From a virus: a stretch of DNA of 13,160 nucleotides. The position numbers were made by a program, and so were the translations under genes. Within the stretch, counting starts at the first letter, position 1. Each line of letters opens with the position of its first letter. Below the pieces are notes generated by a model. The model did no database searches and had not been told where the DNA came from. It worked only from the letters and a program-made list of their open reading frames with translations. Positions 1-7,773 of the stretch are shown here, one piece after another. Where the stretch lies: UHGV virus genome UHGV-0093041. One strand, written 5' to 3'.

Positions 1-499
1 CTCCATATCCCTCAACCGGAAAATAATAATACAAAAATGCTTAGCCCAACTAATAATCACCTAATCCAAACGCCTCATTCATGTTCTGGTACTGTCGCTC
101 AAATGTACTCCGGATACGCGGTTCGCTGATTTCCAGGACATTGTCGTCATTCAGCGACTTGTCCCGTGTATCACGGGCCTGCGAATTCATCAAGGAACGC
201 ATTGCAGAGTGAAGTATCGAGTCACGCCATATTTCGCTATCAGGATTCTGTATGATGGTTACATCGCCCGGCCCAGGACTGTTTAGTCATCAGCGCTTTC
301 TGACAGTGCTGAGATTTCAACCTGTTGCAGTAAAAATGAGTAGATATAGGGCAAGTGTGCTGCCAAACCCATCTTTTACGGGGTGAAGGTAGATATTGTT
401 AGAAGGGTATCTGGTGTCCCCTGCAGACATCTACTTGAAGCGGCAGGGGATTGATTGGAATGGTGTTTTCTAGATGTGAAAAATATTTTACCCGCTATT

Positions 500-700
500 T
501 TACCCATTGGCGCGGCTTAAGAGCTTATTTTTGAATTCACAATGGTCACGATATAACCATCTTGCTCGCCCGTGGATAACTTTGGCTTTAGGCAGGTCCC
601 CGGACTTAATCCGGTCATAGATGAAGGTTTTACCAAAGCCAGTATCAGCCATGATGAATTTCAAATCAACCAGTGAATCAGGCTGTAGTTCGTGTTGCAT
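500..700 (-). CDS. AlpA/Xis-like helix-turn-helix protein (excisionase or small regulator), 66 aa from ATG at 700; the tabulated ORF starts at a TTG at 715
   Basis: Minus-strand ORF with core LVDLKFIMADTGFGKTFIYDRIKSGDLPKAKVIHGRARW, which fits the AlpA/excisionase HTH pattern. GGAGA Shine-Dalgarno 8 nt before ATG 700. Sits at the leftmost end of the leftward operon where lambdoid phages place xis. Confidence 0.6.
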   Translation of the reverse strand: MQHELQPDSLVDLKFIMADTGFGKTFIYDRIKSGDLPKAKVIHGRARWLYRDHCEFKNKLLSRANG

Positions 701-742
701 GAGTGCTATCTCCAAATAGGGAATCGAACCTGCAAATCAGGC

Positions 743-766
743 AATAAAAAACCGCCATCAGGCGGC
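743..766 (-). terminator. Rho-independent terminator (minus strand): CCGCC/GGCGG stem 752-765 followed by U6 on the minus-strand RNA
   Basis: Plus strand reads aaaaaaccgccatcaggcggc; the minus-strand RNA forms a GC-rich hairpin followed by UUUUUUAU. The stop codon of the upstream small ORF lies in the loop. Confidence 0.5.
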
Positions 767-925
767 TTGGTGTTCTTTCAGTTCTTCAATTCGAATATTG
801 GTTACGTCTGCATGTGCTATCTGCGCCCATATCATCCAGTGGTCATAGCAGTCATTGATGTTCTCTGCTTCGATAACTCTGTTGAATGGTTCTCCATTCC
901 ATTCACCTGTGACTCGGAAGTGCAT
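758..925 (-). CDS. Hypothetical small protein, 55 aa (MHFRVTGEWNGEPFNRVIEAENINDCYDHWMIWAQIAHADVTNIRIEELKEHQAA)
   Basis: Not in the supplied ORF track (under 60 aa). GGAGA Shine-Dalgarno 6 nt before ATG at 925; ends in the intrinsic terminator hairpin. Confidence 0.5.
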   Translation of the reverse strand: MHFRVTGEWNGEPFNRVIEAENINDCYDHWMIWAQIAHADVTNIRIEELKEHQAA

Positions 926-997
926 TTATCATCTCCATAAAACAAAACCCGCCGTAGCGAGTTCAGATAAAAGAAATCCCCGCGAATGCGAGGATTG

Positions 998-1282
998 TTA
1001 TTCATTGCTGATATTCACCTTTATCGCGAACACCTTTACCGGTTTATCGCCGAAGTGCGGATGTGTGATTGTCTTGATTTCATACCCTTCATACGGGACG
1101 TCTATTCTGCGACTGGAATCGTCACGCTTCGGATATCCCTTTGTGATAATCAGGCGGTCATACTCGCGGAACATAATTCGCTTATTCCAGTAGTCATTAC
1201 ACAGGCGATACTCTTCCGTTTTCTCTCCGCGAATCATGGCATCGAAGTATTCACCTTTAACGGCAAGTTGCAGGTTAGCCAC
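998..1282 (-). CDS. ASCH-domain-like protein, 94 aa from GTG at 1282
   Basis: Contains IRGEKTEEYR, which fits the ASCH GxKxxExR signature. GGAGG Shine-Dalgarno 6 nt upstream of the GTG; the GTG overlaps the upstream gene stop (GTGGCTAA). The tabulated ORF start at 1354 would overlap the upstream gene by about 80 nt. Confidence 0.55.
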   Translation of the reverse strand: MANLQLAVKGEYFDAMIRGEKTEEYRLCNDYWNKRIMFREYDRLIITKGYPKRDDSSRRIDVPYEGYEIKTITHPHFGDKPVKVFAIKVNISNE

Positions 1283-1967
1283 GGTTAACCTCCAGTTGTG
1301 GTGCTGCCTCAAGAGCAGCCCTGTAACCAGCAGCATGACCGCGAAAGTTAGCAATCTCTGATAGCCACGCTTTAATCATGGCCTGAGTTGGTTCCTTCGG
1401 CACCATAACCCAACCATCCGGAGTTACCGGAGAGTTGCCCGACAGCTTGTTCAACTTGTAAGTCTGGCTTACAGGTTTGGCACCATGAAGCATGGCGGCA
1501 CGACAGGCGTTCCAGCCTCTCACCTCTGCAATAGCTGCAACCGCATCAACCGCATACATGCTAAGAGGGTTCGGCATTGGTTTTTCTTCCGGTACTACTG
1601 GCGATGGCTGTTTAGCTTCTAAATCAGCAATTCTGTCAACTACGGCATCTACTGCATCTGAAAAACTGAAACAGTTACTCCATTCCGGCCTGTTCCCGGT
1701 TGCTGCAAAATACATATCAGCTAAAGCATACTCAGCATGGTCACGCTCGTTGATGAGTTGCTCTTCGCTTTTCTCCAGTTCAGCAATACGCTTACTCCCA
1801 TCCGAGATAACGCCCTCGTAATACTCACGCTGCTCGTTGAGTTTTGATTCAAGTTCACCGAACTTACGGACAAGATATTCAGCGTTTGTTTCGTTAACCT
1901 TTAAATCTCGTGGGATGCATTTACCTTTCAGAAATCCATCCATCTCAATTAGTGTCATTTGTTTCAT
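1275..1967 (-). CDS. Hypothetical protein, 230 aa from first ATG at 1967 (tabulated ORF uses GTG at 1985); N-terminal region looks coiled-coil
   Basis: Long minus-strand ORF; ATG at 1967 overlaps the upstream gene stop as ATGA. No family recognised by eye. Confidence 0.65.
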
Positions 1968-2128
1968 TTCTTCCCACTCCGCCACATCGCATTCAGATAT
2001 TTGTTTTGATTCACTGATGGAAAAGAATTTCTCTTAAGCAATTCCTCTCTCGATGGCATTGGCTTTACGCGTTGGCGAATAATCATTTCTGCCGGAAGAA
2101 TGCCGGGATTGTATGCAAGTCCTCTCAT
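1964..2128 (-). CDS. Hypothetical small protein, 54 aa ([54 protein letters not shown])
   Basis: GAGGAA Shine-Dalgarno 7 nt before ATG at 2128. An alternative ATG at 2146 overlaps the upstream stop. Stop overlaps the start of the next gene (ATGA). Confidence 0.45.
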
Positions 2129-2138
2129 GGTAAATTCC

Positions 2139-2432
2139 TCAGTCATTACTGATAGCGCCATAGCGTGAGCGGTAATTACGCAGGCGTGGGTCAATTTCAG
2201 GGAAGTGGGTATATGTGGCTTTACGGAATGGTCGGATTGATGTCTGGTAAATTCGCTCGCGCTCTTCTTTCTCTGCAAGCCATATGCAGTGGCGAAATTC
2301 CTTTTCCTCTTTTGTTTCCTGCGGTAGCGACATTATCCGGTCGTAGTTTTTTCTGAATTTATCCAGCACCTCCGATACGGAATTGCCGGAACAGCGGCGT
2401 GGGTCATCCGCACCATACAGAGGCGCTGGCAT
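2139..2432 (-). CDS. Hypothetical protein, 97 aa
   Basis: ATG at 2432 preceded by AAGGA Shine-Dalgarno. Occupies the position distal to erf where P22-type phages carry abc (anti-RecBCD) genes; no similarity could be verified by eye. Confidence 0.55.
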
Positions 2433-2455
2433 AATGGAATCCTTATGTTGCTACT

Positions 2456-2839
2456 TTAGAAGGGAATTGAATCGTCGTATTCAGGATGATTTTGATGATT
2501 GCTACTTTGCTGCTGTTGGCTGTTTCCTGAAGTTGCAAATCCAATCTTTGCATTCAGTAATTCAAGAGTGATTGATTGACCATTTTGCCCCTGATAAACA
2601 TCAACCCTGATGTTTTCTCCGGTAATTTCTACAATGCCACCTTCAACAAGAACACTACGGTAGTAATCCGCTTGCGCTCCCGGCTTGGCAAATACAACGG
2701 CACTGTAGTTTGTCCATTCTTTCTTTTTTGTCTGGCGATCGTAATACTGAACGCCAGCACGGATGTTGAATCCGATATTTTCCCCGGCCTGAAACTCTCT
2801 TGCGGGCTTGTTTAGTCTTACAGTAATCGAATGTGCCAT
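2456..2839 (-). CDS. SSB-like single-stranded-DNA-binding protein, 127 aa from ATG at 2839
   Basis: C-terminus ...HPEYDDSIPF resembles the conserved acidic SSB tail (E. coli ...DFDDDIPF), preceded by a Gln-rich linker (SGNSQQQQSSNHQNH). Start overlaps the erf stop (TAATG). The tabulated ORF start at 2929 lies inside erf. Confidence 0.55.
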   Translation of the reverse strand: MAHSITVRLNKPAREFQAGENIGFNIRAGVQYYDRQTKKKEWTNYSAVVFAKPGAQADYYRSVLVEGGIVEITGENIRVDVYQGQNGQSITLELLNAKIGFATSGNSQQQQSSNHQNHPEYDDSIPF

Positions 2840-3444
2840 TAAGCAGCCGCTCCTTCTAATTCGTCTCGTCTGATGTTGTAAACGTCCTGCGCTTTGTGCT
2901 GCTCCGGTGTGCCTTCGAGCATCTTCCACGCTTTGGCGAACGCCTGTTTAAGCTCTTCTACGGTGTTTTTCTGCATTGCTGCGTCAGTGAATGCTTTTAG
3001 AACCTGTTCAGGTGTAGGTGATGGTTTTGATTGCTTTGCTGCTGCGTTCTGCTGATGTTTATGCTCGTCTGTATCTGCATCTTTCGCATCATCAATGCCG
3101 AACAAACCATTGAGGCAATACTTGCGTGCATAAGAGCTTGTAGCTCCCGTAACTTGTGCAGAATCCATTCCTTTCTTGATTTCTTCCTCTCGTGCAAGAG
3201 CGGTTGCCGTATGACTGTTTTCGCCATCGGTAATAGTTGCCGTGGCTTTCACGTAATACCGATCACCAATCAACACAACTTCATCGCTGATTGATAAAAA
3301 CAGACCATTCAGTAACGGCTTAACGCCTTCAAGAATATCTTCGCAGCTTCTGTATTTATATTTACCGAATGAGTTGTACTGATTTTTTGGCGCGTTCAGA
3401 TTCTCCTGAATAGCTGCCAGTCTTGCGTAAAATTCTTTGCTCAT
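2839..3444 (-). CDS. erf: Erf-family single-strand annealing recombinase (P22 Erf-like), 201 aa from ATG at 3444
   Basis: N-terminus MSKEFYARLAAIQENLNAPKNQYNSFGKYKYRSCEDILEGVKPLL... and internal ...TGATSSYARKYCLNGLFGIDD match the P22 Erf family as I recall it. The tabulated ORF start at 3474 is a TTG. Confidence 0.85.
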   Translation of the reverse strand: MSKEFYARLAAIQENLNAPKNQYNSFGKYKYRSCEDILEGVKPLLNGLFLSISDEVVLIGDRYYVKATATITDGENSHTATALAREEEIKKGMDSAQVTGATSSYARKYCLNGLFGIDDAKDADTDEHKHQQNAAAKQSKPSPTPEQVLKAFTDAAMQKNTVEELKQAFAKAWKMLEGTPEQHKAQDVYNIRRDELEGAAA

Positions 3445-3545
3445 ATGTTTGTTCTCAGAATGGACATGGCCCAAGGAAATAACGCTGATTTAATACTTCG
3501 ACTCGGGACAAATTAAGACATACCCGCATTCCTTCGCGGTCGCCA

Positions 3546-3704
3546 TTATGGCGATACCAGAGAGCTTTCTGCGTGTACATGCGTCTCTGTAACTTGCTCT
3601 CCTTCACTGTGGTTGCAAGTGACATGCATATCTCCTTCGTTACCGATTAATTCTTTCATCTGACGAATGAATTCTTCGTCTGACCAGTTATCTGTAAAAC
3701 TCAT
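3546..3704 (-). CDS. Small hypothetical protein, 52 aa, in the position of P22 arf
   Basis: Not in the ORF track. ATG at 3704 overlaps the Kil-like stop (ATGA). Protein MSFTDNWSDEEFIRQMKELIGNEGDMHVTCNHSEGEQVTETHVHAESSLVSP. Confidence 0.4.
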   Translation of the reverse strand: MSFTDNWSDEEFIRQMKELIGNEGDMHVTCNHSEGEQVTETHVHAESSLVSP

Positions 3705-4742: not shown

Positions 4743-5600
4743 TTAAACGAAGCACAGTCCAGAATCGCAGAATTGTATAAGATCCATTTGTGCATTTTTA
4801 CCACCACTAGGTGTTAGTGGTGCCTCAGATAGTGGAACACCATATTTAGTAAGCCACAAATGAGGCCACTTCATTTGTATCTCTTTTTCATGCTGACATG
4901 CTCTTTCAAAATCAGATGGGACGTTATTTTTCATATAAAGCCACAGATCATCATCTCTGTTAGGGCACATCCAGCAAAGCGAGGCAGGTGGTGTAGGAAG
5001 ACCATAATCCTCGACACATTGAATTGCCATCTGTTTAGTCATTAGCATTTCAATAAGTGGATAGCGCCTCTGCCACTTGCCAGTTGGGTATTTCGCTCTT
5101 CGTTTAGCCTCTTCAATGCTTATCCCCATCCAACTATCCACTCCTCTTGCTGTAAGATACTTCTCTCCATATCTTTCATTTAAAAATCTCTGAATAACTT
5201 CAGTTTTCCACTTTATAGAACAAAATGCTGGTTGCTTTCCAGCGCACATTCCTTTTGAATCCCTTCCCTCGTATTCTGTGAAATATCCAGGTAGAGGAAC
5301 GTCTGGATCAGGCCCATCAATGTCGTAGGTAGCAAATCTACTTTTAGGAACAATCAGGTAATCAACACCCATATCTTCACAAATAGGAGCTATATATTTT
5401 TTCTGATATTCAAATACATTACTTGCCTCACGTTCTGTATCTGACATAACGATAATGTCAGGCTTTGGAAGAACGCCAGCATGTACTAAGCAGATTATTG
5501 CGTTACTTTGAGTACCACCACCGGAAGAAATAACATTTAGTCTTTCTGGATTATGCTTGAATTCTCTTCTTGGTATGAATTTACTTGTAAATCCTGGCAT
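4743..5600 (-). CDS. PAPS-reductase-family (PP-loop ATP pyrophosphatase) protein, 285 aa
   Basis: N-terminal region VISSGGGTQSNAIICLVHAGVLPKPDIIVMSDTEREASNVFEYQKKYI aligns by eye with the CysH PP-loop region [42 protein letters not shown]. C-terminal cysteines (CWMCPNRDD, CQHE, FCDSGLC) could bind a metal or Fe-S cluster. AGGAGA Shine-Dalgarno before ATG 5600. Confidence 0.75.
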   Translation of the reverse strand: MPGFTSKFIPRREFKHNPERLNVISSGGGTQSNAIICLVHAGVLPKPDIIVMSDTEREASNVFEYQKKYIAPICEDMGVDYLIVPKSRFATYDIDGPDPDVPLPGYFTEYEGRDSKGMCAGKQPAFCSIKWKTEVIQRFLNERYGEKYLTARGVDSWMGISIEEAKRRAKYPTGKWQRRYPLIEMLMTKQMAIQCVEDYGLPTPPASLCWMCPNRDDDLWLYMKNNVPSDFERACQHEKEIQMKWPHLWLTKYGVPLSEAPLTPSGGKNAQMDLIQFCDSGLCFV

Positions 5601-5736: not shown

Positions 5737-6069
5737 TCACCCCTCATACAGTGGTTTGCTGCCTAATTTCATTTTCTGGCGACCAACACAAGTCACACCC
5801 ATTTCACTGCGTGGCTTGCTGTACCATGTGCGCTGATTCTTGCGCTCAATACGTTGCAGGTTGCTTTCAATCTGTTCGTGGTATTCAGCCAGCACCGTAA
5901 GGTCTATCGGATTCAGTGCGCTTTCTACTCGTGATTTCGGTTTGCGATTCAGCGAGAGAATAGGGCGGTTAACTGGTTTTGCGCTTACCCCAACCAACAG
6001 GGGATTTGCTGCTTTCCATTGAGCCTGTTTCTCTGCGCGACGTTCGCGGCGGCGTGTTTGTGCATCCAT
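5737..6069 (-). CDS. N: Antitermination protein N (lambda N-like), 110 aa from ATG at 6069
   Basis: MDAQTRRRERRAEKQAQWKAANPLLVGVSAKPVNRPILSLNRKPKSRVESALNPIDLTVLAEYH... matches lambda N, including the Arg-rich boxB-binding motif. The tabulated ORF has a spurious 26-aa N-terminal extension. Confidence 0.9.
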   Translation of the reverse strand: MDAQTRRRERRAEKQAQWKAANPLLVGVSAKPVNRPILSLNRKPKSRVESALNPIDLTVLAEYHEQIESNLQRIERKNQRTWYSKPRSEMGVTCVGRQKMKLGSKPLYEG

Positions 6070-6227
6070 CTGGATTCTCCTGTCAGTTAGCTTTGGTGGT
6101 GTGTGGGAGTCGTAGTCCTGAACGAAAACACCCCGCGATTGGCGCATTGGCAGCTAATCCGGATTCGCACTTCCGGCCAATGCTTCGTTTCGTATCACAC
6201 ACCCCAAAGCCTTCTGCTTTGAATGCT

Positions 6228-6420: not shown

Positions 6421-7773
<1,353 letters not shown>

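Follow-up and report, generated by a model that had tools for sequence, protein, structure and literature searches.

The four genes between positions 998 and 2,432 on the minus strand of a viral DNA stretch of 13,160 nucleotides (nt) (UHGV virus genome UHGV-0093041, hereafter the window) very probably belong to the distal early-left operon of an Escherichia coli lambdoid prophage, which carries a recombination module of the P22/HK022 type followed by the local version of the exo-xis accessory region. Read in the direction of transcription, they are abc2 (2139..2432, 97 amino acids (aa), ATG start), for the anti-RecBCD protein 2; a gene for a small DUF2737 protein homologous to P22 orf56 (1964..2128, 54 aa, ATG start); a gene for a mosaic Ead/Ea22-like protein (1275..1967, 230 aa, ATG start); and a gene for a small ASCH-like protein of PUA-like fold (998..1282, 94 aa, GTG start). 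These open reading frames (ORFs) are real, conserved genes, and their lengths, as listed in an earlier note on this DNA, were borne out by the sequence, by the models of the Prokaryotic Genome Annotation Pipeline (PGAP), and by independent gene calls. Nothing in the span departs from known lambdoid architecture, and near-identical copies are already annotated: a prophage of E. coli UMNK88 (NC_017641) covers 100% of positions 700-2600 at 97.5% nucleotide identity, with the same PGAP models for all four ORFs and an identical eight-gene layout, and differs in its wider prophage backbone only. Matching gene calls are also found in other E. coli genomes and gut metagenome contigs, with an identical 230-aa protein and the same neighbours, and matches to parts of it turn up in 516 phage records and in 3765 of the 5426 complete E. 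coli genomes, so that the region is very common prophage material. The earlier observation is thus partly confirmed, and its interpretation, of accessory genes chained between xis and the recombination genes, is half right.

The clearest revision concerns the first of the four genes. The 97-aa protein is, judged by its sequence, Abc2, the presumed RecC-binding hijacker of the host RecBCD enzyme: it matches Pfam PF11043 (Anti-RecBCD_p2) over its whole length (1-97 of 97; E=6.1e-64, 212.7 bits for a cut-off of 25), phrog_656 ('abc2 anti-RecBCD', E=2.6e-55), and the Abc2 chains of PDB 8B1T/8B1U (E=2e-58). It is identical to the RefSeq P22 Abc2 at 91 of 97 residues (94%), the differences falling at positions 32, 65, 76, 78, 86 and 97. 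The structure of P22 Abc2 has been solved on RecBCD (PDB 8B1T), with residues 6-52 modelled on RecC, and Pro68 placed in the active site of the host protein PpiB (PMC9836394). Proline 68 is retained in the window protein, and the sole change within the RecC-contacting residues 6-52 is L32R. According to PMC9836394 and the Murphy work cited there, P22 Abc2 keeps the helicase-nuclease activity of RecBCD largely intact, makes the enzyme unresponsive to Chi, and has been proposed to redirect it to supply single-stranded DNA to the recombinase Erf. By extension, the window protein would bind the Chi-recognition domains of host RecC, and RecBCD would be converted from a nuclease that destroys the phage into a supplier of single-stranded DNA for the phage annealing protein Erf. 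RecC binding and loss of the Chi response are established for P22 Abc2, and are assumed here from the 94% identity.

The genes immediately upstream point the same way. Erf (2839-3444, minus strand, 201 aa; Pfam PF04404, E=4.7e-44) lies two genes upstream of abc2, and between the two stands a gene for a 127-aa protein resembling single-stranded DNA-binding proteins (SSB-like, 2456-2839, minus strand; phrog_44 SSB, E=1.2e-29, with no Pfam match), whose start overlaps the erf stop by 1 nt, and which occupies the position of abc1 in P22. A search of the window for a homologue of P22 Abc1 found none, nor did any exonuclease family appear among the ORFs of the operon scanned, in a scan that was not exhaustive. 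Since Erf and the SSB-like gene stand immediately upstream, abc2 is part of the recombination module rather than an unknown situated past it. The earlier note had set the 97-aa gene among unknowns between xis and the recombination module, while remarking that it sits where phages of the P22 type carry abc genes: the gene is Abc2 itself and lies inside the module, and the positional remark was correct but understated, the comparison with P22 Abc2 having given the 91 identical residues reported above. What had been taken for a 97-aa unknown can therefore be corrected to a RecBCD hijacker, to be read with Erf and the SSB-like gene as a complete module of the P22/HK022 type without Abc1.

The wider gene order supports the assignment to the operon transcribed from the early-left promoter (PL). 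Along the minus strand, the window presents cI (6822-7454), a 134-aa gene, N (5737-6147; PF11438), a 285-aa gene, DUF2528, cIII and kil, then Erf, the SSB-like gene, Abc2, DUF2737, the 230-aa mosaic, the ASCH-like gene, terminator-like hairpins, orf55 and an excisionase of the TorI type. From this synteny with lambda and P22 we infer that the four genes are co-oriented, tightly packed members of the PL operon, and all of them would be made from one N-antiterminated PL transcript. Their co-expression late in that transcript, as first suggested, fits the co-oriented packing, the position of N, cIII, kil and erf upstream on the same strand, and the lack of any internal promoter-like site (no sigma-70-like promoter site was found in positions 400-3600 on either strand, against 5.3 expected from shuffled sequences). 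In lambda, the corresponding map reads exo-orf60a/63/61-ea22-ea8.5-orf55-xis, with the same position between recombination genes and xis in the PL transcript, and this exo-xis region is known to modulate the lysis/lysogeny decision. The region had first been labelled as a counterpart of the lambda b/ea region, which is loosely right: it is an ea or exo-xis accessory counterpart, but not the b region. Lambda nevertheless differs in its recombination genes (Exo/Bet/Gam as against Erf/Abc2), and its exo-xis region contains neither DUF2737 nor the ASCH-like gene.

The gene that follows abc2 encodes a protein assigned by homology to DUF2737 (Pfam PF10930, E=3.8e-31, 107.2 bits for a cut-off of 25), which also matches phrog_1117, bears the PGAP name 'DUF2737 family protein' in UMNK88, and is 75% identical over 53 aa to P22 orf56, of which it is the apparent homologue. 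The earlier note had described three overlapping stop and start codons linking the four genes, two of which hold, as detailed below. The third, given as an ATGA at the junction of abc2 and the 54-aa gene, is a 10-nt spacer (2129..2138) without overlap: the abc2 stop TGA lies at 2141-2139 and the ATG of the 54-aa gene at 2128-2126, and a GAGGAA (2140-2135) forms the Shine-Dalgarno-like site of the latter. An alternative start at the ATG of position 2146 would give a protein of 60 rather than 54 aa and was rejected as unconserved and outside the family profiles; P22 lacks it (AATAAC there), as do the loci where something other than abc2 precedes DUF2737, and in the 60-aa form the Pfam and PHROG profiles match only from residue 7 onwards. 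The same 10-nt gap separates abc2 from orf56 in P22, where the Shine-Dalgarno site is also the same, and recurs in 34 of the 39 loci having both genes, while the Shine-Dalgarno site and the ATGAGA start of DUF2737 are kept in every context compared. DUF2737 would thus be translated from its own ribosome-binding site 10 nt past abc2. It is also found behind RecT-type recombination modules that lack abc2, and is therefore not strictly a partner of Abc2; rather, it marks the border between the recombination module and a variable 'ea' segment. Three loci of this RecT type, with neither Erf nor Abc2, present DUF2737 at the ea boundary with the same Shine-Dalgarno site and ATGAGA start, followed by an ea segment of 4-6 genes that includes a canonical Ead/Ea22, DUF551 and a Lar-like zinc-ribbon ORF. 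A search of the literature on the function of DUF2737 returned nothing.

At the two remaining junctions, the stop of the upstream gene does overlap the start of the next one, as ATGA at 1967-1964 between DUF2737 and the 230-aa gene, and over 8 nt, GTGGCTAA at 1282-1275, between the 230-aa gene and the GTG start of the 94-aa gene, which is preceded at 7-11 nt by a GGAGG. The 230-aa and 94-aa genes would then be translated by termination-reinitiation at ATGA and at GTGGCTAA, the ribosome-binding site of each being carried in the 3' end of the gene upstream. Other overlaps exist in the operon (1 nt for erf and the SSB-like gene, 16 nt for kil and cIII), so that short overlaps are typical of it and not unusual, yet they are conserved. 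Of 95 related loci, 91 show an overlap between the ASCH-like start and the stop before it, of 8 nt in 66 and of 1 nt in 25, although these loci are mostly closely related E. coli prophages and do not count as independent events; the overlap is also seen in genomes of Brenneria, Citrobacter, Enterobacter and Kluyvera, and at the end of DUF2737 an ATGA or GTGA combines the stop with the following start in nearly all loci. Proteins encoded just upstream of the ASCH-like gene carry unrelated C-terminal modules (DUF551, a Cys-rich module, or the type of the 230-aa protein), and nearly all of them, across the related loci, end in EVNRG or EVNHG. The codons of this ending (GGAGGTTAACCGTGGCTAA; 1275-1292 of the window, minus strand) hold the ribosome-binding site and the start of the ASCH-like gene, which is why most variants keep it, and the coupling signal therefore doubles as a fixed recombination boundary. 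Conserved overlaps would in this way act as module boundaries, recombination exchanging the genes between DUF2737 and the ASCH-like gene and leaving the junction sequences unchanged.

The third gene lies within this exchangeable segment, whose length from DUF2737 to the ASCH-like gene varies between about 0.9 and 5 kb in related prophages, the version in the window being among the shortest. An E. coli protein listed as 'ead/Ea22-like family protein' is 100% identical to its 230-aa product, whose partial, mosaic relatives number more than 8000. Residues 1-40 form a junction module, residues ~41-160 a conserved helical core, and residues 186-230 a variable tail that ends in EVNRG; in an alignment of relatives and in individual sequences, the shared core (~41-160) is flanked by alternative N-termini (of the 230-aa type or the canonical MSKIDYQALRE...) and by alternative C-termini (DUF551, a Cys-rich module, or the 230-aa type). 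The match to Pfam PF13935 (Ead/Ea22-like) is limited to the last ~27 profile positions, and scores 21.4 bits for the whole protein and 23.7 bits for its N-terminal 84 aa, below the cut-off of 27. A patch of 28 aa, in the coiled coil, is 89% identical to residues 77-104 of lambda Ea22. The dimeric C-terminal domain of lambda Ea22, known from a nuclear magnetic resonance structure, has no counterpart in the window, and neither a counterpart of that domain nor a match to any PDB chain was found for the 230-aa protein. The N-terminal half had been described as a coiled coil: a long helix is indeed predicted over residues 26-90, but only at low confidence, the AlphaFold2 model having a predicted local distance difference test score (pLDDT) of 48. 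The Ea22 proteins of lambda and of Shiga toxin (Stx) phages are tetrameric coiled-coil proteins that favour lysogeny (PMC7093339, PMC10834534). The 230-aa protein is most likely a coiled-coil oligomer carrying a swappable C-terminal module, and by analogy with these Ea22 proteins it would bias the lysis/lysogeny decision.

Does this gene have a function of its own? The 230-aa gene looks like a fusion that has its head from the first ea gene, its core from Ea22 and its tail from the last ea gene, and it could be a by-product of recombination, left by the collapse of several genes of the Ea22/DUF551 type, whose only role would be to maintain the reading frame and the signals that couple the ASCH-like gene. 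Each of its parts can be traced accordingly: the N-terminus matches the first ea gene of other prophages, the core matches Ead/Ea22 genes, and the EVNRG end matches the last ea gene before the ASCH-like gene, in a window where the spacing from abc2 to the ASCH-like gene is nearly the shortest seen. Selection offers no counterweight here, as the ratio of nonsynonymous to synonymous substitutions (dN/dS; pairwise, by the Nei-Gojobori method, against diverged copies) could not be estimated over the full gene, the loci containing a single near-identical ungapped full-length copy. We nevertheless regard such a functionless by-product as unlikely, since an intact and identical copy of the ORF is present in at least 24 contigs from 44 collection blocks, the core (41-160) is at least 90% conserved across relatives with different ends, and the shuffling of intact modules is the normal mode of evolution in this mosaic group. 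A coiled-coil protein with an exchangeable tail is preferred.

The fourth protein, of 94 aa, most likely is a small ASCH/PUA-like protein that binds nucleic acid or modified nucleotides. The earlier note had proposed an ASCH-like protein from the motif IRGEKTEEYR, and the proposal is supported by the predicted fold and by the motif, while the Pfam sequence score stays below the cut-off (PF04266, 14.2 bits for a cut-off of 21.2, over residues 6-28 only). Searches of the PDB sequences with phmmer and with the family profile gave no ASCH match, the best hits being a designed protein and a xylosidase at E>0.09. Among 70 diverse members of the family scanned with Pfam, 8 reach ASCH at E<=0.01, a weak signal, and 3 match the related DUF3850. 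The AlphaFold model, built with 39 homologues, is of better quality (pLDDT 84, predicted template modelling score 0.71), and the top ten Foldseek matches to it are all ASCH proteins (best E=0.011). The predicted small PUA-like beta-barrel is shared with solved ASCH proteins (PDB 3IUW, PH0355 2Z0T, E. coli YqfB 9KYF, and Zymomonas ZmASCH 5GUQ), which have the GxKxxExR octapeptide at the same place, whereas the 94-aa protein departs from them by a sequence similarity under the Pfam threshold and by a family that is largely of phage and prophage origin. The closest viral models, once the family itself is set aside, include proteins that bear the names ASCH, DUF3850 or 'activating signal cointegrator'. 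The motif IRGEKTEEYR corresponds to residues 17-26, and contains the signature G19-E-K21-T-E-E24-Y-R26, whose four residues are invariant in the 39 close homologues; across the 70 diverse members, K21 is the sole invariant residue, and G19, E24 and R26 are at least 90% conserved. The ASCH assignment thus rests on the modelled fold, the link at the sequence level being marginal. The family (phrog_625) comprises 1216 clusters at 50% identity and 332 phage records, and is found in temperate lambdoid phages, P1-like plasmids, virulent Salmonella Jerseyviruses, and phages of Klebsiella, Erwinia and Ralstonia. No recognised partner domain was seen in the ten longer relatives scanned for domain fusions, and a literature search for this phage gene found no experimental work.

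Within the ASCH group, a catalytic role has to be weighed against binding, as the 94-aa protein might be an N4-acetylcytidine amidohydrolase of the YqfB type, acting on free modified nucleosides. Its octapeptide aligns with that of YqfB, with G19, K21 and R26 matching, and K21 is the one residue that all 70 diverse members share. The catalytic triad of YqfB is Lys21/Thr24/Glu74, with Thr24 as nucleophile (PMC9599836). The alignment obtained with hhalign between the wider family and YqfB is position for position across the octapeptide, but weak, covering only 16 residues at E=0.22. Position 24 of the 94-aa protein is a glutamate in place of the YqfB nucleophile, a residue that does not vary among close homologues and is conserved to at least 90% across the wider family, and no residue could be aligned with YqfB Glu74. 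The replacement of Thr24 by Glu24 makes a YqfB-type amidohydrolase activity unlikely, and we give this enzymatic role a low probability, the 94-aa protein being better described as a putative binder of nucleic acid or modified nucleotides.

Could the four genes instead form one dedicated cassette for anti-defence or recombination control, all of them acting with Abc2 on RecBCD? They are tightly linked and co-oriented, with two coupled junctions; the 10-nt spacing between abc2 and DUF2737 is identical from P22 to the window; and the whole block is unchanged in many E. coli genomes. The chain is however not one fixed unit: DUF2737 and the ASCH-like gene both occur without abc2, the former behind the RecT-type modules already described, the latter in different surroundings in phages of Ralstonia and virulent phages of Salmonella and Klebsiella, and also in 13 non-E. 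coli genomes that have no abc2 closer than 6 kb to it. Where abc2 and the ASCH-like gene are both present, they lie ~0.9 to 5 kb apart, with differing genes between. The comparison with P22 (NC_002371; erf-abc1-abc2-orf56-ea genes-xis) is of the same kind, as this phage shares the order erf, abc2, orf56/DUF2737, ea-type genes and xis, but has abc1 where the window has the SSB-like gene, eight ea ORFs (eaE to eaC) where the window has a single 230-aa mosaic and the ASCH-like gene, and no ASCH-like gene at all. In coliphage HK022 (NC_002166), erf, the SSB-like gene, abc2, DUF2737, the ASCH-like gene and orf55 are shared at 94-100% protein identity; its set of Ea22-like genes in the stretch from DUF2737 to the ASCH-like gene is different and longer, and its int/xis pair is of the lambda type. 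A single cassette devoted to RecBCD is on these grounds very unlikely, and the four genes are better seen as neighbours in a mosaic early-left operon.

The idea that some of the four ORFs are chance open frames is hardly credible: two of them are short (54 and 94 aa) and three have no tested function, but dN/dS is far below 1 for abc2 (0.05-0.2) and the ASCH-like gene (0.10-0.19, with dS up to ~2), and mostly so for DUF2737 (0.14-0.5, with one pair at 0.8), the Pfam and PHROG profile matches are strong, the ASCH-like family has 1216 clusters at 50% identity, and independent gene callers give agreeing models. The substitution pattern, together with how broad the families are, already refutes the idea for the four genes. 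Purifying selection is shown for three of the four genes (abc2, and the 54-aa and 94-aa genes); the earlier note had looked to such a synonymous-biased pattern as a sign of conserved coding sequence, and it was found in these three, the 230-aa gene lacking the copies needed for the comparison. The same note had named, among the outcomes that would refute its reading, an assignment of all four to well-characterised families, and this is partly borne out: all four do belong to named families or PHROGs and are annotated in public genomes, but only Abc2 is well characterised. Another frame, a 57-aa ORF at 832-1005 on the minus strand, whose start overlaps the stop of the ASCH-like gene as ATGAATAA, was considered as a fifth member of the chain and rejected. 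Its dN/dS is 0.5-1.8, it matches no family, the annotations of related genomes omit it, part of it lies over orf55 in a different frame, and two terminator-like hairpins fall inside it; it was judged spurious and is probably not a gene.

Several points weigh against the overall assignment, or against parts of it. PL itself was not identified by the promoter scan, and the place of the four genes in its operon comes from synteny. Translational coupling at the two overlaps is deduced from the nucleotide sequence, and the junction counts come mostly from closely related prophages and are not independent. For the 230-aa protein, the likeness to lambda Ea22 is confined to the 28 residues mentioned above, which leaves its pro-lysogenic role an analogy only; its C-terminal half matches no curated family, and no Pfam domain even at E<=10; and its structure model is too poor to be relied upon for a fold search.

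Downstream of the four genes, a consensus scan placed two hairpins resembling intrinsic terminators directly after the ASCH-like stop (996-975 and 964-945, minus strand), which, as pattern matches only, would mark the end of the chained block (945-996). A third hairpin (768-749, minus strand) follows orf55, and consists of AAGCCGCC-TGAT-GGCGGTTT and then a T run. All three may be terminators of the tL type, read through by N-modified polymerase. The next gene, orf55 (758..925, minus strand, 55 aa; phrog_676, called by PGAP), encodes a protein 100% identical to lambda NP_597778, an unnamed product encoded between xis and ea8.5, and such perfect conservation is unusual for a protein without known function in an otherwise mosaic region. 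The excisionase (500-700, minus strand) is of the TorI type (KplE1/CPS-53). In related genomes, host genes (dsdC-dsdX-dsdA or the csc sucrose genes) come directly after the excisionase, in place of an integrase, which suggests that int and xis are divided between the two ends of the prophage; the attachment site may lie in positions 1-500, at the left end of the window.

Two genes further upstream also deserve mention. The 285-aa gene (4743-5600, minus strand), located in the PL operon just after N, has no Pfam match at E<=0.01 and is named 'phosphoadenosine phosphosulfate reductase family protein' in E. coli genomes, an unusual enzyme-like gene at this place and a possible candidate for DNA modification or counter-defence. 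The 134-aa ORF (6421-6825, minus strand), immediately downstream of cI in the position of lambda rex, has no Pfam match and an N-terminus resembling a signal peptide or that of a lipoprotein, and is likely a moron expressed in the lysogen. Scans of the window with Rfam and for tRNAs found nothing, and PADLOC and NCBIfam searches with the genes gave nothing meaningful.

The direct significance of these results is small, as the window adds one more copy of a block annotated in public E. coli genomes, and the structure of Abc2 on RecBCD was already solved. The conserved junctions, a Shine-Dalgarno site with GTGGCTAA ahead of the ASCH-like gene and ATGA or GTGA at the end of DUF2737, are an example of how signals for translational coupling can at the same time set fixed borders for recombination on both sides of a hypervariable 'ea' segment. 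Only the ASCH-like and DUF2737 families merit further work. There is a slim chance that the 94-aa protein could read or erase a modified base in host or phage nucleic acid, and might be a counter-defence or host-takeover factor, and, as a related possibility, that DUF2737, whose 10-nt distance from abc2 is the same in P22 and in E. coli prophages, serves the recombination modules of phages as an accessory not yet recognised as such. Both families are spread very widely among phages, and screens for anti-defence or host-modulating genes could reasonably include them.

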